A DNA stretch of 64,000 nt from an uncultured Lachnospiraceae bacterium. GTDB taxonomy: Bacteria > Bacillota > Clostridia > Lachnospirales > Lachnospiraceae. The position numbers and the translations under genes were made by a program. Shown here one piece after another: positions 7,385 to 58,383 of the stretch. Numbering within the stretch: position 1 is the first letter of the stretch; every line of letters begins with the position of its first letter. The notes under the pieces were generated by a model. That model saw only the letters and a program-made list of their open reading frames with translations, did not search any database and was not told the origin of the DNA. Where the stretch lies: contig CAYUYJ010000013.1 of assembly GCA_964449325.1 (NCBI GenBank), forward strand, positions 9,006 through 73,005, written 5' to 3'.

Positions 7385-9661
7385 TTATTTTGCTTCTTTT
7401 TTCTTGCCTAACTTCGTGCGGAGCACATACCACAAGGCACCGGTGATGCATACGGAGGAATAAGTACCGCACACAATACCAACCATCAGAGGCAGTGCAA
7501 ATTCACGAATGGAGCTTACGCCCATTACAAAGAGCACGGCTACCATAACAAAGGTAGTCAGGGAAGTAAATACGCTTCTTGAAAGTGTCTGTGTAATACT
7601 TCTGTTTACCACTTCCACCAAATCATCCTTCTTACCCATAAGTGCCATATTTTCACGAATACGGTCAAAAATAACAATCGTTGCATTGACAGAGTAACCT
7701 ACAATTGTAAGCATACATGCAATAAAGGTACTTCCTACGGAAATTCTTGCTGCCGCATAGAAGGTCAGCACTACCAGCACATCATGAATCAAAGCAATAA
7801 CACTGCTGGCACCGAAACGTACGTCTTTAAAGCGGAACCAGATATAAATCAGCATAAATACTGCCGCAACGATAACTGCAAGCAAAGATTCCATGCGCAT
7901 TTCCGAAGAAATGGTTGAACTGATGCTTTCGGTTGTAATGGAAGCTGCATCCACACCGAAGTTTTCCGTCATAACGGTTTCCAGTTCTTCACGCTCTTCC
8001 ATATTTAACGCTCTGGTTTTGAAGATAACCTCGTTAGTTCCTTCTACCTTCTGTGTCTGTACGTTTCCGTCTCCGGTAATATCTTCAATCATCGGAACAA
8101 CATTGGCATCAATATCGGCAAGTGCCATATCTTCATTAAAGGTAACGTTTGTAGAGGTACCGCCTTTAAATTCCAGACTGAAATTCAACGCATCGTTTCC
8201 GGCAGCTTTCTGTCCTGCCATAATTCCGAAGCCTGCCAAAACAATGACACCGGAAAGAATAAAGAATACCGCTTTTTTAGAAAGGAAATTAACGGTTTTC
8301 CGCTCCTTTGTCACACCGTAGAGCTTCTCACTCTTACATCCTAAATGATAGAACGCATTTAGCAACAGTCTTGTAACTACGAGAGACGTAAACAGGGAAA
8401 GCACAATACCCAGTGCTAATGTATACGCAAAGCCCTTAATTGAACCGGAGCCGATGATAGCAAGAACCGCTGCAGCGATTAACGTGGTAATATTTCCGTC
8501 AATAATGGCAGACAGCGCTTTTTCAAAACCAATTTTCATTGCACTGCTTACGGTTTTGCCGGTTGCCAGTTCTTCACGGATTCTTGCGAAAATAATCACG
8601 TTTGCATCCACCGCCATACCGATGGAAAGAATGATACCTGCCACACCCGGAAGGGTCAATGTAATATCAAAACCATACAATAAAACAACAATCAAAGCTA
8701 CATATAATAACAAAGCAAGCGATGCTGCAAGTCCCGGAAGGAAATAAATTGCTATCATTAAGAGAATCACGATTACAAGGCCAATGGCACCTGCCTTTAA
8801 GCTTGTCTCAATAGCTTCCGAGCCAAGCTGTGCACCAACCACCTTGGAATGCAGCTCTTCCAGTTCCAGCTTCAAACCGCCGATACGAATCGTGGAAGCA
8901 AGCTTCTCTGCCTCCTCAAAGGAACCCATACCGGAAATTTCTGCCGTACCACCGTTAATCACGCTGTTTACCTGCGGTGCACTGACAATCTTACCATCAT
9001 AATAAATAGCAATCGATTCTCCGGCATTGTAAGCAGCCTCCGTTGCCTGCGCAAACTTCACACTTCCTTCGTCCGTCAGTTCCAACTGTACCACATAATC
9101 CGTTCTCTCCATCTTATCTACTCTGGAGCCTGCCTGTGCTTCTGCCACATCCGTACCGGTCAGCACAATAGAACTGTCTGCTTCAATTTCCTCAATCGGT
9201 TTATTCAATACATAAACAATTTTCATTTCCCCGGTTGTTTCATCCGTACCGTAGGACTGAACATAATTCTGATTTCCCTCATCGTCAGTCTGTTTAATAA
9301 AGTAAAGGGAACCCGGCTTTCCAAGTTCTTCCAGAATCGCATTGGCATCCGATACACCCGGAATTTCAATATTGATTCTGTCTGTACCTTCCTGATAAAC
9401 CTGTGCTTCCGTACTGTAAGTAAATACACGCTGTTGCAGCTTGTAAATCGTATCCGCCATATCCTTGCTGTCCGGTTCTTCTTCACCGACTACCTGATAT
9501 GTAATACTTACACCGCCTGCCAAATCCAGTCCCAAAGAAATACTGGACGCAGAACCCGCTTTTTCTTCACCGAAGCCTGCAATTGCCGTATAGGAACAAA
9601 GTCCAAGCAAAAGTGCAAAAACAAGCAGAACGATGACGCTTTTTGTTTTCTTGTTTTTCAT
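7385..9661 (-). CDS. secDF: protein translocase subunit SecDF (fused)
   Basis: 758-aa ORF. It has an N-terminal TM, a large extracytoplasmic loop and six TMs (SecD-like), then a second loop plus six-TM block (SecF-like). Its position next to recJ is typical for Firmicutes. Confidence 0.9.
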   Translation of the reverse strand: MKNKKTKSVIVLLVFALLLGLCSYTAIAGFGEEKAGSASSISLGLDLAGGVSITYQVVGEEEPDSKDMADTIYKLQQRVFTYSTEAQVYQEGTDRINIEIPGVSDANAILEELGKPGSLYFIKQTDDEGNQNYVQSYGTDETTGEMKIVYVLNKPIEEIEADSSIVLTGTDVAEAQAGSRVDKMERTDYVVQLELTDEGSVKFAQATEAAYNAGESIAIYYDGKIVSAPQVNSVINGGTAEISGMGSFEEAEKLASTIRIGGLKLELEELHSKVVGAQLGSEAIETSLKAGAIGLVIVILLMIAIYFLPGLAASLALLLYVALIVVLLYGFDITLTLPGVAGIILSIGMAVDANVIIFARIREELATGKTVSSAMKIGFEKALSAIIDGNITTLIAAAVLAIIGSGSIKGFAYTLALGIVLSLFTSLVVTRLLLNAFYHLGCKSEKLYGVTKERKTVNFLSKKAVFFILSGVIVLAGFGIMAGQKAAGNDALNFSLEFKGGTSTNVTFNEDMALADIDANVVPMIEDITGDGNVQTQKVEGTNEVIFKTRALNMEEREELETVMTENFGVDAASITTESISSTISSEMRMESLLAVIVAAVFMLIYIWFRFKDVRFGASSVIALIHDVLVVLTFYAAARISVGSTFIACMLTIVGYSVNATIVIFDRIRENMALMGKKDDLVEVVNRSITQTLSRSVFTSLTTFVMVAVLFVMGVSSIREFALPLMVGIVCGTYSSVCITGALWYVLRTKLGKKKEAK

Positions 9662-44149: not shown

Positions 44150-44258
44150 AACTACCTCCAAAAAAATTCGCTACACCAAGTCTTTTCCTTAGTATAGCGA
44201 ATTATTCGCAAAATTACAATGAAATTGCTCTTCTTTATGGTTTATGCAGCCCCTCGAA

Positions 44259-46256
44259 CTATCTCAATGTAAAGGAGTCCGCCATCTGCTTTAAGCTCTG
44301 TGCACATTCATTTAACTGTTGGCTGATAGCCGTATTTTCTTCTGCACTTGCCGCATTGTTTTCAACGCTTTCAGCAACTTCCTTTAATTCTTCATTGACG
44401 TCCTCAATTGCCTTCTGCTGTTTCTCAACAAGCTCCACAATTTCATCAATATGCTGTTTTGACTGAACAGAATCGTCCATTCCCTGCTGAATGGTTGCGG
44501 AAGTAGCGGTAACCAGTTCTTTTCCCGCCAAAACAGCCGATTGGGATTCCACAATCAGCTTATCAATATTCTCACTTGCCTGTGCACTGGATGCAGCAAG
44601 CGTACTGATTTCACCTGCAACAACAGCAAAGCCCTTTCCTGCTTCCCCAGCCCGGGCTGCTTCAATGGAGGCGTTTAGCGAAAGCAGATTTGTCTGGGCT
44701 GCAATGCTCTTAATTGTTCCCACAAAACCTGCAATCTCGCCATAACATTGTTCGATGCTTTCCATTGCCCTTACAAGGTCGTCCATCTCACGGTTGCCTG
44801 TCTTCAAATGTTCCTTTGTAATTTCTGCCGTATCGCGGATAAAGATGGCACGTTCTGTAATCTGCTTTGTCTGCTCCGTCAACCGTGCCATATCGTCCGA
44901 TACATTGGCAACCGCCTCATTCTGCATAGAAGCACTCTGTGCCACACTCTCTGTTGTTTTCCCCAATTTATCTGCAAAATCCAATACACTCTCGGCTTCC
45001 CTGCTGATTTGTTTGAAGGATTCATTCAGATTGCTTACAATGCTTTCCAGTGCATCCTTAATCTGCACATAGCTTCCCTTAAACTCTCCGTCGATTGTAA
45101 CCGTCAGATTTTTATCCGAAATTGCCGTAACCGTATCGGAAATACTGTCAATATAAAACTTAAGACTCTCAATCGTTTCGTTAATGGCATCTGTCAGTTT
45201 CTCAATTTCCAGAGAATTCTTCTCTTCGTCAAATATTACTGACAAGTCGCCCTGTGCAACCCGTGTCATTTTCCCGCTGATGGATTCCATCGGCCGGAAC
45301 AGTATACTGATTTTTCCATGAACATCTTTCCTGATAACAGCAGTCAGCCACAGGTAAATCAGCAGATTTACACCAACAATCAAAACAAAGAAAAGCAATA
45401 TCGTATTTAAAGGTTTCACAGCAACCACATTCCAACCCGTTACCTCGGAAGTATTACCGATTCCAAATTTAAAACCGCCTTTATAATCCAAAAAAAGTCT
45501 TGTCGCCATATTTCCCTTCATAAAGGGCTCATATCTTCCCGCATTTACTTCCTGTACAGTATGGGTACTATCTCCGCTCATCGAATAGTCTTTATTCGGA
45601 TGTACGAGAATCGTTCCGTCAGAAGTAGTCAGGAACACATAGCTGCTTGTCGCATAACTTTCCTCAATAAGGGAAACCAGATTGTCCATATACATATCCA
45701 TTCCGACAACACCTGACACTTCTCCGTTTCGGTAGGTTGCTTTGGACAATGTAATACAGATTCCACCTGTCTGCAAATCCACATACGGGTCGGAAATATA
45801 TACTTTCTCCGGTTCTGCCTGTGCTCTCTTATACCATTCACGCTCTGTTACAATAAAGTCCTCCGGCGGCTGCCATCCTCCGCTCATAATGGTGACATTC
45901 TCGTCATAACAACTGTAAACCGCTGAAATCTGTTCATCCATCGTCACCATGGAATCCACATAGCTTAAAACATCCTCCCCTTCTTCAAGGGTTCCGCTAC
46001 TGATTCCGGATGCAATTGCCTCAAGCATACTTACCTTGCTCTGCATGGCGCGGTCAATTTGCTCCTTATAATCTCCGGCAGAACTACGGTTGTCTTTCAA
46101 AGTATACATGATTGCAAAAAAACCACCAATCAGGATGGATACCAAACATACAATAATCAGTGCGCGTCGCAGGAGCACTACAAACATGCGCCCAATTCTG
46201 CTGCTTAATCCTTCCTTTACGTTCTCTGTTTTCGTCTCATTTCCAATCTTATTCAT
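44259..46256 (-). CDS. methyl-accepting chemotaxis protein with extracellular Cache-like domain
   Basis: Domain order is TM, ~250-aa Cache-like sensor, TM, HAMP, then MCP signalling domain ([26 protein letters not shown]). The start is chosen at MNKIGNE (GGAGG 9 nt upstream). ATGs at 46262 and 46277 are alternatives. Confidence 0.88.
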
Positions 46257-49200
46257 CTGCATTTTCCTCCAAAACAAGGTTGTCGTATAATTCTTTGTAC
46301 TTCTCCATCAGTTCTCCATGGTGTGCACGAATGTAATCCAAATCTTTGGTTTTTGCCGCCATTTCCAGTTCCTTTGCCTGCGCCGACAGCTCTACGGCAC
46401 CGATGGTCAGGGAAGTACTTTTTAAAGCATGTACCGTAATACGATAGTTTTCCCAATCTTCCTTTGCTAAAAATTCTTCTAAAGCGGCGTGTTTATCGTT
46501 TTTCAGATATTCTCCTATCATTTCATGATAAAAATTCATATCATCCATACAGTAACTTAGACCTGTGCTGATGTCCAGTCCCGGAATTGCAGCAAGCCCC
46601 TTCACTTCCTCTGTTGCGGACTGCACACCTTCTTTTGCCTGCGCTTTTCCTGCAGCATGTGCACTCTCGGTGTTTTGTATATCTGCCGTTTCTTTCTGTG
46701 TATCCTCCAGCCGCCTAAGTGACAGCTTCTCCGGCGGCAGATATCTTAAAAGAACTGCATTCAGTTCTTTCTCCTGAATCGGTTTGGACAGATAATCCGC
46801 AAATCCCGCCTGCATGTATTCTTCCCTCGCCCCGAGAATTGCATTGGCTGTCAATATTACAACCGGCGTGGTAATGTTGGGATGATTTTCCATTTCCTTC
46901 ATTTGATGGAAGCATTCCACACCGTCCATGACCGGCATCAGATGATCCATGAAAATCAAATCATATTTATCCTTTTGTATCTTATCAAGCGCATCCATCC
47001 CGCTTTCCGCAGTATCCACTGCGACGGCCGTATATTTGAGCAGTCCTTTTGCCACCAAAAGATTCATAGGCACATCATCAACTACCAGAACCTTTGCATC
47101 CGGAGCATAAACCAACTCTGTCTCAAGGTTTTCCCTCTCCATCTGCTCATGATACCGCTTGGAAAAATCCCCGATTGGTTCATGATTCCTGATGTGCTGC
47201 TGTATTCTCGCCTGAAATGTGGAACCCTGTCCGTAGACACTGCTTACCGAAATCTCTCCGCCCATCATTTCCACCAGATTTTTGGTCAAATTGAGTCCTA
47301 AACCTGTTCCCTCAATATTTCGATTTCTCTTTTCATCCACTCTGGTGAAATTCTCAAACAGCCTGCCGATATCCTCCTTTTTGATACCGATTCCTGTGTC
47401 CTTCACAGTAATGACAAGCATCATGATGGCATCTCTTTTTCCCTCATAATCCACATGCAGTTCAATTTCTCCCTCATTTGTATATTTCACTGCGTTGGAA
47501 AGCAGATTATTGATAATCTGTCGTACCCGCACCTCATCCCCGTAAAGACCACAGGGCATGGACGGATTGATCGAAATAGAAAATTCCAGTCCCTTCTCTG
47601 CCGCCCTTGATGCAGTCATATTATAGCAGTCGTTTAATACGGAAAACAGTTCATACTCCACAGGAATAATTTCCAGCTTTCCCGACTCAATTTTAGAAAT
47701 ATCCAGAATATCATTAACAATGGAAAGTAACGACTGACTGGCACTCTGGATGTTTTTTCCATATTCTCGAAGTGTTTCATTATCCTCACACTCCCTGAGT
47801 AACATGGTATCCATACCGATAATTCCATTGATGGGAGTACGGATTTCGTGAGACATATTCGTCAAAAAGGTGCTCTTCGCATGATTGGCAGCCACCAGTT
47901 CTTCTTCATGCTCCAGGAGCTGTTTTCTCTGTTTTTCATAAAGATGGTTCTGATATTTTAAAATAATGCCAAAGATACAGGATACAAAGAAAATTGCCTG
48001 TATGACATCAAAAACCATATACCCCTCCGGCATCTCTACAAGAAGTTCCGGATATCTGTTTGCCACCAAAATACACCCCGTCATCGTAGCAAACCCTAAC
48101 AGGAACATAATCAGGCATGTCCAACCCTTCAATATCAGCCATGTGAAAATCAATCCCAAAACAAACCATACCGGCATACCGCTGTAAATACCTCCGGATG
48201 CAAAAAACATCAGCGGAAATACAATAATATTAGCTCCAAAGCAAATCAGCATTCCTGCCATCCGCATATTATTGGTTTTTACCGATAAATACATGGCACC
48301 AAATACCAAAAGCAAGATCAGCATGATAACAGCCACACTTTCATAGGCTCCCATCGCTAACGTGGCAATCAGAGCAGCTGATCCGCCAACTAATGCTGCT
48401 GTCAGGATTAAATGCATCATTCTCTGCTGAATGCTGTATTCCTCTTTCAGAATGGTATTCGCATACCAGTTGGTTACTCTTTTCACACTGCTTTCCCGTC
48501 TCGTCCTTTTATCATCCTTCTCTGCCGCAGTTCTTCTCTCTTTCCTGAAAAAGAACAATCCCCATGTTCCCTCTCCACTGTTACATGCAATTATTGATGA
48601 AGCCTTTTGAAAGTATATATGCTTAAAATGACATCTCTTTTCTACCTCATTTTTAATATATTCCAGCGTTTCCGCATCCAGATTTACATGGGCAATAAAA
48701 AGTATATCCTTGTCAATTCTCCATTTGTTTCTTAATGTACATTTTATATATTTGCTAATTACCTCTGCCCATTGTCCGACAAAAACATGTTTTGGCACAA
48801 TGTTTGCACCTTTCATGGTGAGCATGGGGTGCATAAGCATTCTTTCACAAATGTTATTGACTCCCTTGGAAAGTCTGCCGGAGCGATACAGAAACCGGGT
48901 TTCCTTTAAAACAAATCCGGAAGACACCAGATTTTCCGAATCAGAAAGTACGTTCAAAATCTGTGTCAGGGATGCACCCTCCTGCGCCATTTTTGCCGCT
49001 TTGATTACAAACAGTCCCATCCCGTCAGAAAGCTGTCCGGAATCGAATACTGACACATTAGAACACTTTTGTGCTGCTTTTACCGCATTGTAATAACCAT
49101 CACTGACCTTTTTTGCCATGGTAATATGCAAAATATGTTCTGCCACAGTCAGCTGTTTTGCAAAAAAAGCCTCATATTCCTCTACCGTAGGAGGGTCGGA

Positions 49201-49398
49201 AATAGCAAGCCTGTTTTCCTGTTCCATATAAAGCAACAAATCGTTCTGGTCTATTTCCACACCATCGACAAACCGTCCTGCCTCTGTCCGGACATAATAC
49301 GGATGAATGACAACTCCATACTGACTAATCAGTTCTTCCGGCAAATCGCATACACTGTCAGCTGTAATCAAAAGAGAAACTTTATTATGCATCTTCAC
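46249..49398 (-). CDS. DegV-domain / multi-TM / hybrid sensor histidine kinase (HisKA-HATPase-REC-Hpt)
   Basis: 1049-aa ORF. The N-terminal ~290 aa is DegV-like ([15 protein letters not shown]..., ...[14 protein letters not shown]). About six TMs follow, then H-box [11 protein letters not shown], the ATPase N/G boxes (NAVKYT, DTGIGI, GTGLGL), REC (DHLMPVMDG) and Hpt ([12 protein letters not shown]). Confidence 0.88.
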
Positions 49399-51466
49399 TT
49401 TTTCCTCCTTTCAGTACTTTTCGCAATGTACGCGACATTTCAGCCAATTCTATCGGTTTGGATACAAACTCATCAAAACCTTCCTTTAAGAACATTTCCC
49501 TTGCACCGCTCACTGCATTGGCAGTCAATGCAATAATCGGAATATTCCTGTAATGTCCGTTCCGCAACTCCCGTATTTTCTGCATGGCTACGATTCCATT
49601 CATCCCGGGCATCATATGATCCATAAAAATAATCTGATAGTCCGTGAAGCTACATTTCTCTATGGCAAGTTCTCCGCTTAAGCAGGTATCTGCCTCAATT
49701 CCATACGTGTCTAATACTCCCTTTGCTACCATCAGATTCATATGGTCATCATCTACTACCAGTGCACTGATATCTGTAAAATGTAAATCCTTTTCCTCTT
49801 CTTCCTTTCTATTTTGTCCGAATGTCCCGGGTACTATGGCATTTAACAGGTTCACCACCGCCATCACGTACACCGGTTTTCTCAAAATATGAATATTACT
49901 GTTCTTCGGCAGAATAAAAGTGTCATCAGCGAAGACTACCGTAAAAATCTTTTTACTTAGATCTTCGAAATAGTGCCTGTCCATCTCATATTCCCAGCTT
50001 GAAACAAACACATGGGTAAGCGGATTGGTTTCTACAATTTTTTTCAGTGCATCCAGTGAATCCACCTGACTGATATTTAATCCAAGACCACTTTTGATAT
50101 GACCGACCATCGTACCATAATATTGTGCAATCTCAGGACACACATATTTTTCTCCATTGAAATAGCATGCAACCAGGAAATCACTACTCTTTTTCACGCA
50201 GATAGATGCCTTATGATCCACCACCTGCTGCGGAATTACCACATGAACATGAGTTCCCTCGGAAACCTTGCTTTGAATGGATATAAATCCGCCCATGGCA
50301 GCTACCATTCCGTGCACAATTGCAAGTCCGAGACCAAGTCCTCCTGTTTTACGTTCAACATCGGAATCCCCTTGGTAGAAATGTGTAAATATCTGCTTAA
50401 GCTGCTCCTCGCTCATTCCTATGCCGGTATCCCATACATCAATATTCAGATTGATTCCATATTCTTCCTCTCTTTTTCCGATATACAAGTATGCCCCACC
50501 GGACTTCGTGAACTTGATTACATTATCCATAAGTGCCTGAATAATTTTTTTCAGTTTCCCTGCATCCCCATGTAACACCTTCGGAATATCCGGCTGTATA
50601 TCAATTGCTATATCCAGCTTTCGGTTCATCCTCTGCCATTGAATGCCGGAAACGGCATCATTGATTACGGACAGCGGCTCATAATCCTCGGCGGATACCT
50701 CCAGTGTATTCGTAATCAATTCCGAATAATCCAAAATATCGCTGACCTGACCATACAGGCGTCTTCCGGCACTCTGAATAGCCTCTATCTCCTTTCTCAG
50801 TCCGCTATCCAGTTCTCTGTGAAGAATAATCTCACTCATGCCGTTAACCGCATTAATCGGAGTGCGTAACTCATGTGAAACATTGACAAGAAACCTCTCA
50901 CTCTCCCGCCTTGCATTGAGCAGTTCCTTTTCCATTTTATCCAACAGCATCGTCTCCCGATTCCGGTACCTGATAAACACTCTGGAAATAAAAACGGCAC
51001 ACAAAAGACATACGATACCAAGAATCACCCTCATCCAGATAATCTGCTCTGTACCCGGACCAATAAATCCGGTTACAAAAAAATGCCACAAAAGAACGAC
51101 CGGAAAAGCAGATGCTATCAAATAGATTAACATCATATTCTGCTGTGCAGACAGGATACTCATTAACAGACAAAGTATAATCGGAACATCCGTTGCAGAA
51201 TTCCCATGTCCGCCGTAATACAGCACACCGCCCAGTGCAACAATAGTATAAAAACAGATTCTCGCATTTGCTGTTCCCACCTGAAAGAAATGCACAATCC
51301 AACAGGAAAGAATGAATACTCCGGTTAAAGGACCTATAATCTGCCAGAATTTCCAATTGGCAGTCACCATAACCACCACAAGCAATATCTCCAAAACAGT
51401 GATTAGTGTTATAAATGTCATATGAAATAATGTCTGAATTTCTTTTTCGGATTTTCTTTCTCTCAC
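49385..51466 (-). CDS. hybrid sensor histidine kinase (multi-TM sensor, HisKA-HATPase, linker domain, REC)
   Basis: 693-aa ORF with five or six N-terminal TMs, H-box VSHELRTPINAV, ATPase G boxes (DTGIGM, GGLGLGL), a ~150-aa intervening domain, and REC (DHMMPGMNG). Its stop overlaps the DegV-kinase start by 14 nt. Confidence 0.88.
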   Translation of the reverse strand: MRERKSEKEIQTLFHMTFITLITVLEILLVVVMVTANWKFWQIIGPLTGVFILSCWIVHFFQVGTANARICFYTIVALGGVLYYGGHGNSATDVPIILCLLMSILSAQQNMMLIYLIASAFPVVLLWHFFVTGFIGPGTEQIIWMRVILGIVCLLCAVFISRVFIRYRNRETMLLDKMEKELLNARRESERFLVNVSHELRTPINAVNGMSEIILHRELDSGLRKEIEAIQSAGRRLYGQVSDILDYSELITNTLEVSAEDYEPLSVINDAVSGIQWQRMNRKLDIAIDIQPDIPKVLHGDAGKLKKIIQALMDNVIKFTKSGGAYLYIGKREEEYGINLNIDVWDTGIGMSEEQLKQIFTHFYQGDSDVERKTGGLGLGLAIVHGMVAAMGGFISIQSKVSEGTHVHVVIPQQVVDHKASICVKKSSDFLVACYFNGEKYVCPEIAQYYGTMVGHIKSGLGLNISQVDSLDALKKIVETNPLTHVFVSSWEYEMDRHYFEDLSKKIFTVVFADDTFILPKNSNIHILRKPVYVMAVVNLLNAIVPGTFGQNRKEEEEKDLHFTDISALVVDDDHMNLMVAKGVLDTYGIEADTCLSGELAIEKCSFTDYQIIFMDHMMPGMNGIVAMQKIRELRNGHYRNIPIIALTANAVSGAREMFLKEGFDEFVSKPIELAEMSRTLRKVLKGGKSEDA

Positions 51467-51490: not shown

Positions 51491-54400
51491 TTACATTTGC
51501 TCTGTTACTTTACGGATAAGGTTCTTTAACACCTGATAGTGTTCTGTCAGTGCCTTATGGTTAGCTACGACTTCTTCCGTATGACCCTCTTTTGCTGCCA
51601 TTTCCTGCATTCGTGCCTCCTCGGAAAGCTCCGCTGCACCAATGGTTTTTGCGTTACTCTTCAAAGCATGCACTGTAATCCGGTAATTTTCCCAGTCCGC
51701 TTTCTGAAGAAAGTCTTCCAATTCCTCATCCTTTTTCCCTTCAGCAAATTCATTCAGCATCTCTATATAAAACATTTTGCTTTCCGCACAGAAGGCTAAT
51801 CCTTCCTTAACATCCAACTGTGGTATCTGCATGGAAAAGATCTGTAATTCCTCCGGTGAGAAAGAATCCTCCGGTGTCATATCCTGCATATTTTGCGGCT
51901 CAATCTTCTCCGTTTTTTCTGAAACCTCCTGACTTGCAGTCTCCTGTACGGATGCTTTCTTTTTTTCTTTATTCTTAAAACCAACCTTTTCTTTCGGAAG
52001 GTACTCTGCCAATATCTTCTCCAGTCCTTCCACAACGATTGGCTTTGAAAGGTAATCGTCAAAACCTTCTGCCAGATATTGTTCCTTCGCACCTGTAATT
52101 GCATTGGCAGTCATGACAATAATCTTTGTATACACCGGTAGGAATTTGCTTTTCCTTAAAGCCTTCATTGTCTCAATGCCATCCATCTCCGGCATCATAT
52201 GATCCATGAAAATAATATCATACTGCTTTTTCTCCACCATTCGGATGCACTCCATACCGCTTGATGCCGTATCTACTTTGATACTGCTTCGTTTTAACAG
52301 TCCCACTGCCACTTTCAGATTCATCTGATTATCATCAACAATCAGAATTTCCGCATCAGGAGCGTAAAGATATCCTTTTTCCTCTTTCTTCATTTTTTCC
52401 TTTTGAATAACATTGTGTCCAACCGGTGTCCGGTCTACAATTCTCTGTTTTAAGTCAAAAGAAAATTTGGAGCCTTTCCCGTACTCACTCTCAACCTCCA
52501 AAGAGCTTCCCATCATTTTCAGCAGACTCTGCACGATGGAAATTCCCAGTCCGGTTCCTTCAACATTGTGATTTTTTTCTTCATCCAGTCTCTGGAAGGA
52601 TTCGAAAAGCTTTCCCATATCTTCTTTTCGGATACCGATACCGGTATCGATTACCTCCACATGAAGGAGGATATCTTCCGTTTCCTCTGCCACATCCTGT
52701 TTTTGAATAACCAGAGTCACTTTACCTTCCCTTGTATATTTCACTGCATTCGTCAAAAGATTGATGATAATCTGCCTTATTCTTACATCATCACCATACA
52801 GGGAGCACGGAAGCTTTTCATCAATCTTTAATTCCAGCAGCAGCCCCTTCTTTTCTGCCTTATCGGCTATCATATTTATCAAATCATTGATAAGATCCGA
52901 TGTATCGTACCGCACCGGAACTATCTCCATTTTTCCGTCTTCAATCTTGGAAAAATCAAGGATACTGTTAATCAACGCCAGCAAGGTCTTTCCGGCACTC
53001 TGAATGTTTTCCGCATATTCACAAATATCTTCGTCTTCACTTTCCCGAAGAATCATTTCATTCATGCCCAAAACTGCATTAATCGGGGTACGAATCTCAT
53101 GGCTCATCTGTGCCAGAAATTGAGATTTTGCCTGTGTAGCCTGCACTGCTTCATCCGCTGCATCCTTTAAACGTACACTTACCGCCTGCTGCCATATCAG
53201 CAGTCTGCGTATCAGATATCTAACGGCAAAAATACAAAATCCAAACATCGGTAAGAAAGCCAGTATAAAAAAAACGATTCCGCCGTAGATTGACCACCAG
53301 TCCTTTACCACCATGATGGTAAAGTTGGAAACATCATCATGCTCCGAAATACACGCCTTATATTTTCCATCGTAATCCTTCAAAACACTGATTTCCGAGT
53401 TTTTGGAATACACCTTCGCATAATTTAAATCCCGTACATTTACAGAACTGTTTCCGGAGAGCTGATATTCTTCATTCGGATGATTGATAATGATTCCGTT
53501 ATTATTTATCAGAAAAGCATATCCATCCTCCGAATAGGTATTCTGCATAACCTCAGTCAGCTTATCCAGATTAAAGTCAATCGCAAACACTCCCAAAAAA
53601 GTACCATCTTTTCCATAAACCCTTTTGGAAAAGGTTAAATAGTACCTCTTCTCCTGTGTATCATAGTAGGGGCTGGAAATGAAAAAGCCCTCCTTATCAC
53701 TCATGGTATCCGCATACCATGGATAAGCCTGCAATATGTAATCCTCCCCCGGCACCCATCCATTGTTCATGATTACTTTCCATGAAGTATCCGGATTGCC
53801 TATATACACAAGCGAAATTTCAGGATAATTTTCTGCAACAGCATTCAAATAAGCGGTTGCCTGCGAACGTTCCTCCAACAATTCAGGCTGTGCTGCTATG
53901 GAATGACAAAACATTTCCAATATGGTCTTCCTGTCTTCCATCCATTCAATCAGTTTTGCATTATAGCCACTCACTTCTTCTGACATACGGGTTGCACCCA
54001 AGTCCAGAAGCATCGTGTCGCAAAAGAACAAAATCAGAAACATTGCTATGATAAGCACGCCCGTGACCTGCCATCTGGTTCTTTTTCCGATACGGGACTC
54101 CGTCTCTTCCCTGTCGGTTTTCGTTGCCTTTCTTTTCTGCCCCTCATCTGCCTTTGTGAGCCCGGAATAGGAAAAAAGATTATCCAGCATATTCGACAAC
54201 AGCAGTGCCGATTCTTGAATTTTGTCAATATTATCTTTTAAGTCGGTACTCATGCTCAAGGATTTCCTGTTACTCGAATTCAGTATCCTTTTTAACGGTG
54301 TCTTAAGCTCAGAGGATAAATTGGACAGAAAATTTTCCTTGACAGACAGAGCCTTTTCAGCCCGCATACGGTCATTCTGGGCACGAATATATAGCACAAC

Positions 54401-55345
54401 CACGATTCCTATCAGCAAAAGATTCAACAACGAATTTCTTATTAACTGAAGATAACTTTCTTTATACAGTTCCCATTCCTGTACACTCAAAATCAAATAC
54501 CAGTTGTTCTGTGTACGGGTAAAAAACACCTTGTTTTTCTTCCCGTTAATATTACTGTCAAAGGATAACTGCTCTTTTCTCTGTACGGTAATCTCTCGGA
54601 ACACATTATCATACTCCGGCAGTGCTTCCGACAGGCTTTTCCCAAGATAATCCGCATTCGCATAGCCGATAATCATTCCCTCATCATTGACAATGAGAGC
54701 CTCACTCTTATTATCACTCTGCATTTCCTCAATGGAATTCTGTATTTTGGACAAACTGAAATCCAGTGCCACGATACTTCTTCTGTCAGAAAGCAGTTCG
54801 GCTACCGTAAAGCACATATTTCCTGTAACAAGGTCTACATAGGGAGGAGAAATATAAATATCACCGGGATTTTGCTTCAGTGTCTCTGAATACCAGATTC
54901 GCTCCTCCACCTTAAAATCTTCCGGCAGATCATACCCCGGCAGAATAATATATTCATCACGCACCAGAAAAGTATTCATACAGACACCGTCCGACAACTG
55001 CTTCTGTAATATGCTCTGTTTCCTGAAAAAATCGGTCATTTCTTCCTTGGAAGCCCCTTGTTCCATACGTTCTTCCACTTGATTTGCCAAAATGGAAGTC
55101 ATATATTCCGATTCCGAAAGCATCGACTGCAGATTCCCGGTAATGCTTTCCGCCTGATTCTGTCCAATGGTTTCTATCTGCCTTACAGTCATGCTGTAAA
55201 TCAGCAAAATATTAAGAAGAAGCACAATTACCAAAACAACAAAAACCGCGCCGATAAAGCCATAACTGGTTTTTTTCCCATGCCCAAAGCCGAACTTTTT
55301 CCGTAATGAATCCTTTGTCTTTTCAAACATACTCCACAGCCTCAC
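51491..55345 (-). CDS. hybrid sensor histidine kinase with two tandem TM-Cache-TM modules (HisKA-HATPase-REC-Hpt)
   Basis: 1284-aa ORF with four TMs bracketing two Cache-like extracellular domains. A degenerate H-box LSSELKTPL follows module 1, and the bona fide H-box [12 protein letters not shown] follows module 2. Then come the ATPase (DTGIGI, GTGLGI), REC (DHMMPEMDG) and Hpt (HALKSNAKTIGA). Confidence 0.88.
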   Translation of the reverse strand: MRLWSMFEKTKDSLRKKFGFGHGKKTSYGFIGAVFVVLVIVLLLNILLIYSMTVRQIETIGQNQAESITGNLQSMLSESEYMTSILANQVEERMEQGASKEEMTDFFRKQSILQKQLSDGVCMNTFLVRDEYIILPGYDLPEDFKVEERIWYSETLKQNPGDIYISPPYVDLVTGNMCFTVAELLSDRRSIVALDFSLSKIQNSIEEMQSDNKSEALIVNDEGMIIGYANADYLGKSLSEALPEYDNVFREITVQRKEQLSFDSNINGKKNKVFFTRTQNNWYLILSVQEWELYKESYLQLIRNSLLNLLLIGIVVVLYIRAQNDRMRAEKALSVKENFLSNLSSELKTPLKRILNSSNRKSLSMSTDLKDNIDKIQESALLLSNMLDNLFSYSGLTKADEGQKRKATKTDREETESRIGKRTRWQVTGVLIIAMFLILFFCDTMLLDLGATRMSEEVSGYNAKLIEWMEDRKTILEMFCHSIAAQPELLEERSQATAYLNAVAENYPEISLVYIGNPDTSWKVIMNNGWVPGEDYILQAYPWYADTMSDKEGFFISSPYYDTQEKRYYLTFSKRVYGKDGTFLGVFAIDFNLDKLTEVMQNTYSEDGYAFLINNNGIIINHPNEEYQLSGNSSVNVRDLNYAKVYSKNSEISVLKDYDGKYKACISEHDDVSNFTIMVVKDWWSIYGGIVFFILAFLPMFGFCIFAVRYLIRRLLIWQQAVSVRLKDAADEAVQATQAKSQFLAQMSHEIRTPINAVLGMNEMILRESEDEDICEYAENIQSAGKTLLALINSILDFSKIEDGKMEIVPVRYDTSDLINDLINMIADKAEKKGLLLELKIDEKLPCSLYGDDVRIRQIIINLLTNAVKYTREGKVTLVIQKQDVAEETEDILLHVEVIDTGIGIRKEDMGKLFESFQRLDEEKNHNVEGTGLGISIVQSLLKMMGSSLEVESEYGKGSKFSFDLKQRIVDRTPVGHNVIQKEKMKKEEKGYLYAPDAEILIVDDNQMNLKVAVGLLKRSSIKVDTASSGMECIRMVEKKQYDIIFMDHMMPEMDGIETMKALRKSKFLPVYTKIIVMTANAITGAKEQYLAEGFDDYLSKPIVVEGLEKILAEYLPKEKVGFKNKEKKKASVQETASQEVSEKTEKIEPQNMQDMTPEDSFSPEELQIFSMQIPQLDVKEGLAFCAESKMFYIEMLNEFAEGKKDEELEDFLQKADWENYRITVHALKSNAKTIGAAELSEEARMQEMAAKEGHTEEVVANHKALTEHYQVLKNLIRKVTEQM

Positions 55346-56369: not shown

Positions 56370-57806
56370 TTATATCTCACGCATCCGATATTCCGTATCC
56401 TCATCGATTATGGTTAACATCACATCGGCAAAGTATGGGTCAAACTGCGTACCTTTTCCCTTTTCAATCTCACCTCGTACCACCTCCTGTGGCAACACAT
56501 CACGATAACTGCGCTTTGAAGTCATAGCATCATATGCATCGGCAACACCGATAATTCTTGCCACCTCCGGAATTTCTTCGCCCTTTAGCTTATCCGGATA
56601 ACCTCTGCCGTCATAGCGCTCATGATGCCACCTTGCCCCGATTCCGATATTCGGAAGTTCTGAAATATTCTTAAGGATATCACTTCCAATCACAGGATGC
56701 GTCTTAATGATTTCGTATTCTTCATCCGTCAGTCTGGAAGTCTTATTGATAATCTCATCCGGTACACCAATCTTGCCAATATCGTGCAGAAGCCCCATAT
56801 AATAGATGTCCTCCTGCTCCTTCTCACTCTTGCCGATTCGCTTTGCAATCTCTTTTGCATATTCTGCCACGCGGGTGGAATGACCATTTGTATATTTATC
56901 CTTGGCATCAATGGTTCCCGCAAGTGTACGCATAATCTGTAAAGACATGCGCTCTACCTTCCGTCTTCTCTCCTCTGCTCTCCATGTCTGCTTTTCAACC
57001 TCCTGCTGCAGATTTTTCTGCAGACGGTCAAGCTGCAAAATACGGCTTACGCGCTGTATCATAATATCCGCAACAAAAGGCTTTGTGATAAAATCAAGTG
57101 CACCTTCCTTAAAGCATCTTATCTCTGTCTCCCTGTCATCATCCGCTGTCAGGAAAATTACGGGAATACTCCGGCAACCGTCGTCAGCCTGAAGCTGCTT
57201 CATAACCTCAAATCCATCCATTCCGGGCATATGCAAATCCAACAGAATCAATTCAGGACGTTTGTCCTTTAAGAAGTCCAAAGCTCTTTCACCCGAATCC
57301 ACGCTGCTTACCTGAAATTTTCCCTCTAACATTTTCTCTGCCATCCGCAGATTCATGCTATTATCATCCACTACAAGAATATGCGGCAAGATTTCCGTCT
57401 GCTCTTGCACTGTCTGCCCTTCCGTCTCCGATTTTCCAAGGATTTTTTGCAAATGATACAACAGTTTTCTGTAATTCTCCATTGTACTGCCGTGATGCTC
57501 TCTGATAAAACCAAGGTCACTTGCCTTTGCCGCCATTTCCAGCGACTTTGCCTTATCAGAAACCTCGACAGCTCCAATAGAAAGAGAGGTGCTCTTCAGC
57601 GCATGCACCAAAATCCGGTAATTCTCCCAATCTTCCTTCTGATAGGCTGCCTCTATACTGTCATATTTCTGATTATCCAAATAGGAAAGCAGCATTTCTT
57701 TATAAAATTCCTCGCTGTCACAGCAGTAAGAAAGCCCTGTGGTAACATCCAATATCGTATCCAGTTTTCCGATAAAATTCTCTTGACTATTACTTGTTGA
57801 TGACAT
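56370..57806 (-). CDS. Hpt-REC-HD-GYP response regulator (putative c-di-GMP phosphodiesterase output)
   Basis: 478-aa ORF with an N-terminal Hpt ([12 protein letters not shown]), REC (LLDLHMPGMDG), and a C-terminal HD-GYP (HDIGKIGV, HHERYDGRGYP). Confidence 0.88.
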   Translation of the reverse strand: MSSTSNSQENFIGKLDTILDVTTGLSYCCDSEEFYKEMLLSYLDNQKYDSIEAAYQKEDWENYRILVHALKSTSLSIGAVEVSDKAKSLEMAAKASDLGFIREHHGSTMENYRKLLYHLQKILGKSETEGQTVQEQTEILPHILVVDDNSMNLRMAEKMLEGKFQVSSVDSGERALDFLKDKRPELILLDLHMPGMDGFEVMKQLQADDGCRSIPVIFLTADDDRETEIRCFKEGALDFITKPFVADIMIQRVSRILQLDRLQKNLQQEVEKQTWRAEERRRKVERMSLQIMRTLAGTIDAKDKYTNGHSTRVAEYAKEIAKRIGKSEKEQEDIYYMGLLHDIGKIGVPDEIINKTSRLTDEEYEIIKTHPVIGSDILKNISELPNIGIGARWHHERYDGRGYPDKLKGEEIPEVARIIGVADAYDAMTSKRSYRDVLPQEVVRGEIEKGKGTQFDPYFADVMLTIIDEDTEYRMREI

Positions 57807-57815
57807 AACCTACTC

Positions 57816-58181
57816 CTATTCCAAGAGTGTATCCACACTCTCATACAACTTTTGCGGCAAGATTGGTTTTTGGATAAATCCCTGTACTGCGTATTCTCCG
57901 TTTGCCACCGCCTGTTCCATGTCCTCGGATGAAGATAAAAACGCTATCGGAAGCTCTGCCCATTCACTTCTTGCACGGATTGCATCCAGCGTTTCCATTC
58001 CATTCATTACCGGCATTTCCACATCCAAAAGAACCAAATCTACTGCTTCCTCCTGCAAAAGAGCAAGGGCTGCCTGCCCCGAATCCGCTTTTTTCACATC
58101 ATAGCCCTGCTTCTTAAGAAGCATTTCTGCCATTCGTAAATTCATGGCATCATCATCGACAACTAAAATTGTTTTTCCCAT
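57816..58181 (-). CDS. single-domain response regulator (CheY-like REC)
   Basis: 121-aa ORF with ILVVDDD..., LLDVEMPVMNG and a conserved K-region. It is the first gene of the signalling operon. Confidence 0.9.
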   Translation of the reverse strand: MGKTILVVDDDAMNLRMAEMLLKKQGYDVKKADSGQAALALLQEEAVDLVLLDVEMPVMNGMETLDAIRARSEWAELPIAFLSSSEDMEQAVANGEYAVQGFIQKPILPQKLYESVDTLLE

Positions 58182-58383
58182 TTATCATTCTCTCCTGTCT
58201 TTTATGACTTAAGTTAACTCTCTTTTCCGTAATAATTCGTTAAAAATCGACAACTTTATTATACATATTAAAGAAGAATAAGTAAACTATCCAAATGGGT
58301 ATATTTTCCTATTTGGAGGTTCTTTTTTCCATATCACTGATTTTTTCCGTTATTAAATCCAATACGTGTAATATCTTCACATC

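Follow-up and report, generated by a model that had tools for sequence, protein, structure and literature searches.

The 64,000-nucleotide window analysed here (positions 9,006 to 73,005 of contig CAYUYJ010000013.1, assembly GCA_964449325.1) comes from an uncultured Lachnospiraceae bacterium of the gut and contains, at 46249-49398 on the reverse strand, a gene for a hybrid histidine kinase with a DegV domain at its N-terminus. The open reading frame is uninterrupted and encodes 1049 amino acids when counted from the GTG at 49398. The true start is probably the ATG at 49392, giving 1047 amino acids, because Met3 is invariant in 18 orthologues, because a 97%-identical relative (P0002) has 1047 amino acids and because a GGAGG lies 11 nucleotides upstream. 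Pfam families are found in the order DegV (residues 10-285), HisKA (507-573), HATPase_c (620-733), Response_reg (770-882) and Hpt (970-1020), so that the protein consists of a full-length DegV domain, a basic disordered linker, six membrane helices, HisKA, HATPase, receiver (REC) and Hpt. An initial annotation, made from the sequence alone, had described a DegV domain fused N-terminally to a membrane hybrid kinase. Pfam, NCBIfam and the fold confirm it in every particular except for a slight shift of the start codon, and both DegV sequence strings that it quoted are found in the translation.

An assembly or frameshift artefact was considered as the source of this architecture and rejected. The same domain order is present in 19 independent sequences (NCBI, ENA, JGI and Logan), and a syntenic orthologue with 68% identity is found in the equivalent operon of another genus. 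Furthermore, the open reading frames of the DegV kinase and of the partner kinase directly upstream are in different frames, and their overlap is also found in a related locus (L001).

The DegV domain is encoded at 48544-49371 (all positions in the operon refer to the reverse strand). It matches the Pfam model PF02645 with 136.1 bits (cut-off 27, E 2e-39) over model positions 3-279 of 280 and the NCBIfam DegV model TIGR00762 with 154.5 bits (cut-off 99.7). Matching sequences in the PDB are 2dt8, 4x9x and 6mh9. An AlphaFold model built from 18 orthologues has a mean predicted local confidence (pLDDT) of 72, with values of 85-93 across DegV residues 5-288. Foldseek searches with this part rendered fatty-acid-loaded DegV/FakB crystal structures (2DT8, 1PZX, 5UTO, 4X9X and 7W7H_E, among others) with target-normalised template-modelling scores of 0.80-0.89 and root mean square deviations of 2.5-3.6 Å over about 285 columns. 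The domain can thus be described as FakB-like with the EDD fold, and in the predicted structure the match covers its whole length, including the elements that roof the FakB tunnel. These roof elements are missing in the tunnel-less FakA_C (PMC9136124).

The head-group site was compared in an alignment with FakB1 and FakB2 of Staphylococcus aureus, DegV of Thermus and Bacillus and the genome's own DegV proteins. Roles of individual residues were taken from PMC8892158 and PMC9136124, and conservation was counted in 119 close fused relatives whose DegV domains were located by phmmer. Thr62 of FakB1 corresponds to Ser67, Ser95 to Ser99 and Ser171-Gly172-Arg173 to Ser173-Gly174-Arg175; His270 is replaced by Asn273, Arg205 by Val207 and Ser92 by Lys96. 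D14 is invariant in the close relatives together with S67, S99, G174 and N273, and S173-G174-R175 is invariant or nearly so in the clade. The Asn at the position of His270, after which we call the domain Asn-type, occurs in 119 of 119 relatives, all of which also have I, V, M or F at the position of Arg205. The basic residue at position 96, new in relation to FakB1, is Lys or Arg without exception. His and Arg at the two changed positions are found in seven of eight canonical proteins.

These replacements can be read against the roles of the residues in FakB. The network that holds the carboxylate in FakB1 consists of Thr62, Ser95, Ser171 and His270 (PMC8892158); here S67, S99 and S173 are kept and the fourth member is Asn273, so the network is not that of FakB. 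Arg173 is required in FakB for phosphorylation by FakA (PMC9136124) and is retained as R175, being invariant in the clade with N-terminal DegV and K, R, Q or H in the clade with C-terminal DegV. FakB docks on both FakA_C and the membrane through Arg205 (PMC9136124, PMC8892158), and this residue is lost here. The FakB1 equivalog model NF038249 scores 77.8 bits, far below its cut-off of 350. The initial annotation had named, as findings that would speak against its reading, a lack of profile support for DegV or degenerate pocket residues in a domain that binds no lipid. Two curated profile libraries and the fold uphold the assignment, and with S67, S99, S173-G174-R175 and N273 conserved in the clade the head-group site is remodelled and conserved rather than degenerate.

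The organism has a FakA gene (657 bits; contig C2:174117-175748) and four stand-alone DegV genes (207-257 bits, compared with 139 bits for the fused domain), one of which adjoins fakA. A tree was built from 161 DegV domains. Its 153 Asn-type sequences group together in a single clade with a support of 0.95, and FakB1, FakB2, DegV of Thermus and Bacillus and the genome's four stand-alone DegV proteins all fall outside it. Because Arg205 is lost, His270 is replaced by Asn, the FakB1 equivalog is below its cut-off and the clade is separate, the fused domain does not appear to be a FakB and is probably not a substrate of FakA. We propose, on this sequence evidence, that the Asn-type clade has left the FakA/FakB fatty-acid-kinase pathway. 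There is also a second kind of divergent DegV in the genome, a stand-alone protein (C12:47699-48511, forward strand) with Tyr at the position of His270, Val at Arg205 and Asn at Ser171, which groups outside the Asn-type clade.

A basic linker (residues 286-303; 48490-48543) connects the DegV domain to the membrane module. It is predicted to be disordered (pLDDT below 50 at 289-303) and has a mean identity of 19% among orthologues. An amphipathic helix (304-316) and the six-helix membrane module (323-481) follow at 47956-48489. Hydropathy and the positive-inside rule place six membrane helices between residues 327 and 481, and the AlphaFold model has them at 323-349, 352-373, 378-400, 408-422, 426-448 and from 462 onward, in agreement with the earlier estimate of about six. 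The topology is N-in/C-in, which puts DegV as well as the kinase in the cytoplasm, as had been assumed. The loops of the module are very short and it has a conserved motif, P..FF..GG...G.P.WF. It is 41% identical to the N-terminal module of relatives with a C-terminal DegV. No Pfam match was found for the module alone at E<=10 and none across 50 relatives at E<=0.01. MASE6 (PF20966) was rejected as its identity since no profile match occurred in the query or in the 50 relatives; the lone signal, in the kinase of a locus where DegV is a separate gene, was sub-threshold (20.9 bits, cut-off 27.4). In the model the sixth membrane helix is continuous with the DHp domain as a single helix, and we propose that the membrane module is a second, conventional input that would be rigidly joined to the kinase through this helix.

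The kinase part has every element expected of an unorthodox hybrid HisKA kinase: the H-box His, the N, G1, F and G2 boxes, the acidic pocket, phospho-accepting Asp and Lys of the receiver, and the Hpt His. The HisKA/DHp domain (47680-47880, Pfam E 2.8e-19) contains the phospho-acceptor His517 (codon 47848-47850), which is invariant. The HATPase_c domain (47200-47541, E 8.5e-29) has intact N, G1, F and G2 boxes, with N631/N635, D667-G671, F681/F684 and G697-L702 invariant in the alignment of 18 orthologues. In the same alignment D774, D775, D818, T850 and K872 are invariant in the receiver (46753-47091, E 2.6e-24), whose phospho-acceptor is Asp818 (codon 46945-46947), and so are His990 (codon 46429-46431) and K993 in the Hpt four-helix module (residues 941-1047; 46258-46578; 26.9 bits, cut-off 24.6). 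The codons of His517 and of the receiver residues were checked. The complete array claimed initially is thus present with its phosphorelay residues intact, and judged by its sequence the kinase is expected to be functional. Mean identity among orthologues is 65% for DegV and 68% for both the membrane module and the Hpt module, and 19-36% for the linkers.

The DegV kinase is the sixth of seven genes that run from 58181 down to 44259, all on the reverse strand, with ends that overlap or nearly abut. The first encodes a single-domain receiver of 121 amino acids (57816-58181), a counterpart of which heads the clusters in two other loci (L005 and L002). The second encodes an Hpt-REC-HD-GYP protein of 478 amino acids (56370-57806; HD_5 E 2.9e-36, with Pfam REC and Hpt matches) with the motifs LLHDIGK (HD) and HHERYDGRGYP. 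From its sequence this protein is the likely output of the operon, as a phosphodiesterase of cyclic di-GMP (c-di-GMP). A solute-binding protein of family PF04392 (55356-56348, E 2.3e-56) is followed by a double-dCache hybrid kinase with Hpt (51491-55345, 1284 amino acids; domains by Pfam), which is the closest paralogue of the DegV kinase in the kinase core (51%) and the REC core (50%).

The fifth gene (49385-51466) encodes the partner hybrid kinase of 693 amino acids, which consists of a membrane region, HisKA, HATPase, an insert of about 150 amino acids and REC (domains by Pfam). It has no Hpt, and its stop overlaps the start of the DegV kinase by 14 nucleotides. The insert (residues about 415-568, between the ATPase and REC) belongs to no strong Pfam family, and the orthologue in L001 has a weak Receiver_CRE1 match on record. 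Such a layout of DHp, CA, pseudoreceiver and REC recalls the c-di-GMP-gated hybrid kinase ShkA (PDB 6QRJ), although 6QRJ matched the kinase core only (E 1e-37). By this analogy, feedback of c-di-GMP on the partner kinase is conceivable.

The seventh gene (44259-46277) encodes a chemoreceptor (methyl-accepting chemotaxis protein) with the Pfam domains dCache, HAMP and MCPsignal, and its start region overlaps the stop of the DegV kinase. The listed TTG start at 46277 is probably too far upstream, as ATG codons at 46262 and 46256 are preceded by GGAGG. These codons overlap the stop of the DegV kinase, which suggests translational coupling. The boundaries of the operon come from consensus scans: a promoter-like site upstream of the first gene (58258-58286, TTTACT-17-TATAAT, 10 of 12 positions) and, as the best terminator-like candidate, a hairpin with a 16-pair stem and TTTTT after the chemoreceptor gene (44165-44203), both on the reverse strand and both resting on consensus matches. 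The operon also contains three paralogous Hpt modules, in the DegV kinase (46258-46578), at the N-terminus of the HD-GYP protein (57450-57806) and in the double-dCache kinase (51491-51890). They are 43-61% identical and have the string DWENYRI.VHALKS in common, the module of the DegV kinase being 61% and 50% identical to the other two, which points to duplication or shuffling inside the cluster.

Related loci show that the DegV kinase belongs to a pair, since the Asn-type DegV is always accompanied by a conserved partner hybrid kinase and, in most cases, by a REC-HD-GYP regulator. The orthologue with 68% identity in another genus lies in an equivalent operon minus the chemoreceptor. In L001, which has the N-terminal form, a REC-HD-GYP-GGDEF gene and a partner kinase with 69% identity are upstream of the DegV kinase. 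In L002, which has the C-terminal form, the cluster consists of a single REC, the partner kinase and the DegV kinase; this partner is 40% identical to that of the window over all 693 residues and has an extra Hpt. The partner kinase is orthologous across the N- and C-terminal forms. As Hpt is on the partner in L002 and on the DegV kinase in the window, the domain content of the pair is equal and DegV and Hpt have been exchanged. A gene for a REC-HD-GYP protein was found in four of the five loci examined.

Another genome of the genus has a split form (L004; G001:C90, 8912-16162, reverse strand). There, a partner-type hybrid kinase of 709 amino acids is followed by a free Asn-type DegV gene of 283 amino acids that overlaps the kinase stop by 4 nucleotides and whose product is 39% identical to the domain in the window. 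The operon also holds a REC-HD-GYP gene and a hybrid kinase of 1064 amino acids with Hpt. The order of partner REC and then DegV is the gene-level order of the window, which suggests that the window form may have arisen when a free or upstream-attached DegV fused to the next kinase gene.

Kinases with an Asn-type DegV are built in several ways. A search restricted to long proteins gave 209 clusters with an Asn-type DegV, and kinase domains are present in all of the best 120 of these 209. Most are about 900 amino acids long, with a membrane module, kinase and REC that are 41% identical to the window protein and a 45%-identical DegV at the C-terminus after REC, in the place held by Hpt in the window protein. 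When 1.84 billion representatives were searched exhaustively, 207 matches were found at E<=1e-30. The architectures comprise an N-terminal DegV (about 950-1070 amino acids), a C-terminal DegV after REC (about 890 amino acids), which is the majority form with 100 of 121 close matches and 68 of about 100 fused representatives, an arrangement of membrane module, kinase, REC, DegV and Hpt (about 1150 amino acids), DegV-Hpt and REC-DegV pieces, and about 50 free proteins of 280-300 amino acids. There are also dCache kinases with DegV at either end, N-terminal in P0126 (1568 amino acids) and C-terminal in P0133 (1004 amino acids), and the module is therefore not bound to one type of membrane input. 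The Asn signature is found in 78 of 100 fused and 41 of 50 free representatives, while the other head-group residues are variable in more distant members.

The N-terminal clade of the window is nested among C-terminal forms in the tree, and the N-terminal form thus seems to be a derived minority. It was found in the window protein and in at least two further lineages. A search of contigs with H-box peptides rendered generic hybrid kinases from many phyla, with L042 as the sole true N-terminal-DegV relative. Among 41 related genomes about 10 have a fused form, and of 200 genomes sampled evenly across the class only about 5 do. The source names of relatives include Roseburia, Coprococcus, Colidextribacter, Provencibacterium, Lachnospiraceae and Oscillospiraceae. 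Four genomes of the same genus (G001, G002, G004 and G005) have the C-terminal form (open reading frames of 900-911 amino acids, 41-42% identity). The window genome has only the N-terminal form, and the orthologue closest to it (68%) comes from a different genus of the family, which suggests that the cluster may have been replaced or acquired by horizontal transfer.

The initial annotation also interpreted the architecture as a lipid sensor at the N-terminus wired directly to two-component signalling, which could be a route for sensing fatty acids. The part that concerns the lipid stands in so far as the fold is that of lipid binders, and it is the predicted fold that suggests a fatty acid as ligand; a function like that of FakB does not follow, as the docking Arg is lost and His is replaced by Asn. 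Direct wiring is not borne out. The linker to the first membrane helix is disordered and poorly conserved, and most relatives carry DegV elsewhere, either behind REC, flanked by REC and Hpt, or encoded by a gene of its own. With a disordered linker and a free position in the chain, signalling does not go through a fixed helical connection, and DegV would therefore act by docking on another part of the relay. A module that works from the N-terminus and also exists in split form has a free position, which again argues for docking. From the architectures, DegV is best described as a tethered accessory module.

We lean, by a little, towards the reading that DegV is a cytoplasmic lipid-ligand sensor that modulates a two-kinase phosphorelay in control of c-di-GMP and motility, and that it probably has no part in supplying lipid synthesis. 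The unorthodox hybrid kinase would be active, with a relay from His517 to Asp818 to His990, and would pair with the upstream partner kinase inside the seven-gene phosphorelay operon. DegV would bind a fatty-acyl ligand drawn from the cytoplasmic leaflet, either a long-chain fatty acid or one of its derivatives, and the flexible basic linker would keep it at the membrane. By analogy with the closed/open switch of FakB1, occupancy by the ligand might shift the conformation of DegV. The contacts that DegV makes with the kinase, REC or Hpt core, either in the same chain or in the partner, would then change, and with them the flux through the phosphorelay. The output would be the Hpt-REC-HD-GYP c-di-GMP phosphodiesterase, with the chemoreceptor attached. 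We infer that DegV binds a lipid, what this ligand is, which way regulation runs and that c-di-GMP and motility are affected, the output of the operon being taken from gene order. With 19 GGDEF genes and 5 flagellin genes in the genome, c-di-GMP control of motility is plausible.

Several observations weigh against a lipid sensor. His270 of the carboxylate network is replaced by Asn, and fused relatives at a greater distance differ at the positions of S95, R173 and D8 too, so that some of them may bind another head group or nothing. The residues that correspond to the membrane-insertion helix of FakB1 are less hydrophobic (W180 to N and L184 to R). No lipid-metabolism genes, fak, pls and fab included, were found in the neighbourhoods examined (the window, L001, L002 and L004). 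The full-length model has a predicted template-modelling score (pTM) of 0.36 and is uninformative on the mutual placement of the domains. Finally, the commonest position of DegV, after REC, is the usual place of an output domain and not of an input.

This last point leads to an alternative to which we give a low probability, namely that DegV is an output whose pick-up, holding or release of fatty acid is controlled by phosphorylation of REC. In that case the handling of lipids would be under the control of the relay, with fatty acid being kept away from FakA/PlsX, for instance, or passed to the membrane. The position directly after REC in most relatives, at the counts given above, is the classical output place of response regulators, and REC-DegV and REC-DegV-Hpt pieces exist. 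However, the window protein and at least two further lineages have DegV at the N-terminus, which is the classical place of an input and distant from their own REC, and in the split form DegV is a free protein. A hand-over to the Fak pathway is unlikely without the FakA-docking Arg, and the operons have a dedicated output regulator in the REC-HD-GYP protein.

We also consider it unlikely that DegV has lost ligand binding and is a pure interaction or scaffold module that docks the partner kinase, Hpt or the HD-GYP regulator. The replacement of His270 and Arg205, the drift of head-group residues in distant members and the tolerance of several chain positions fit such a role. On the other hand, the full-length fold with the tunnel-forming elements is retained, and the residues that are invariant in the close clade (S67, S99, G174, N273 and K96) lie together where FakB has its carboxylate site (PMC8892158) and not in a surface patch.

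Lipid sensing could also take another form, in which the Asn-type DegV is a receptor for acyl-phosphate, the product of PlsX/FakA, or for a specific signalling fatty acid, and reports the size of the pool. Acyl-phosphate is a central intermediate of phospholipid synthesis in Firmicutes, and acetyl phosphate phosphorylates many response regulators. In its strongest version the phosphoryl group would pass directly to the neighbouring receiver Asp, and the pool of a phospholipid intermediate would be read straight into control of c-di-GMP and motility, bypassing the kinase step. R175 is invariant in the N-terminal clade, K96 adds a new invariant positive charge (Lys or Arg) beside the head-group loop, and DegV is beside REC in most relatives. 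In FakB, Arg173 neutralises the charge of the acyl-phosphate product (PMC9136124). We nevertheless regard this form as very doubtful, since the Arg position is K, R, Q or H in the C-terminal clade and the kinase core is fully intact, so that a bypass donor is unneeded. The least likely alternative, and a highly improbable one, is an ordinary FakB that happens to be tethered to a kinase and supplies FakA with fatty acid at the membrane. In its favour are the retained fold, several conserved head-group residues and the presence of FakA in the genome. Against it, Arg205 is lost, Asn273 replaces His270, the FakB1 equivalog score is far below cut-off, the clade contains no canonical FakB/DegV protein, not even one of the four from this genome, and no fak, pls or fab genes are nearby.

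Cytoplasmic lipid sensing by two-component systems is poorly understood. In gut and rumen Clostridia the Asn-type DegV clade is firmly associated with hybrid kinases, their partner kinases and regulators of the HD-GYP type. The lipid sensor that we favour would make this clade a testable candidate for the way in which these motile commensals, which produce butyrate, link fatty acids from the diet, the host or the membrane to c-di-GMP, motility and chemotaxis. In known cases, such as DesK, RpfC and the effects of fatty acids on PhoQ and SaeS, lipids act through transmembrane or juxtamembrane segments and not through a dedicated lipid-binding fold.

As the initial annotation had allowed, the architecture is already catalogued, under the NCBI name "DegV family EDD domain-containing protein", which hides the signalling role of these kinases. 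That annotation knew of no characterised example, and our search of the full-text literature likewise found no study of a DegV-histidine-kinase fusion. The CREST and L. ruminis papers mention stand-alone DegV genes only, and a network analysis of PF02645 from 2025 mentions multidomain DegV proteins in passing and trims them to the domain (PMC12288450). New in the window are the N-terminal permutation, the exchange of DegV and Hpt within a conserved kinase pair and the connection to a split form.

Compared with known systems, the domain resembles FakB1, FakB2 and DegV (PF02645; 5UTO, 4X9X, 2DT8, 1PZX and 3FYS) in its two-lobed EDD fold, the DS motif, the hydroxyl of Thr62 (Ser here), S95 and S171-G172-R173. 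Unlike these, which are free proteins of about 280 amino acids, it is fused to a membrane hybrid kinase. The closest relatives are the kinases with a C-terminal DegV in gut and rumen Clostridia (for example P0021 from Colidextribacter and P0054), which have a 41%-identical membrane module, kinase and REC, a 45%-identical Asn-type DegV and an orthologous partner. They differ in the places of two modules, with DegV after REC and Hpt on the partner, whereas the window has an N-terminal DegV on a kinase that also carries the Hpt.

The logic of the operon, and the logic only, is that of the RpfC-RpfG system for diffusible signal factor (DSF) in Xanthomonas, where RpfC is a multi-helix membrane hybrid kinase with REC and Hpt and RpfG is a REC-HD-GYP regulator that degrades c-di-GMP. 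Both kinds of protein are encoded in the operon of the window, the hybrid kinase carrying REC and Hpt and the regulator being of the REC-HD-GYP type. The activation of RpfC by the fatty acid DSF is a precedent for fatty-acid control of a hybrid kinase (PMC5391125). However, RpfC binds DSF by an N-terminal periplasmic/juxtamembrane peptide of 22 residues and not by a DegV fold (PMC5391125), and no homology between the two inputs was found or is expected. RpfC is proteobacterial and the window is from Clostridia. In S. aureus, the handling of fatty acids by the fatty acid kinase is linked to the output of the two-component kinase SaeS (PMC12859096). The coupling there is indirect: the two are not physically fused and a DegV dedicated to sensing is lacking, whereas in the window a lipid-binding fold is inside the kinase.

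The closest analogues in role are H-NOX/HnoK and NosP/NahK. These are cytoplasmic ligand sensors encoded beside or fused with hybrid kinases, which they regulate by contact and not by way of a helical linker, and such systems often feed multi-kinase relays that control c-di-GMP enzymes. They have another fold, and their ligand is nitric oxide or haem, compared with the presumed lipid of the DegV module. Their operons, with a sensor gene beside a kinase gene, are mirrored by the split form, in which the Asn-type DegV is a free protein encoded next to the partner-type kinase.

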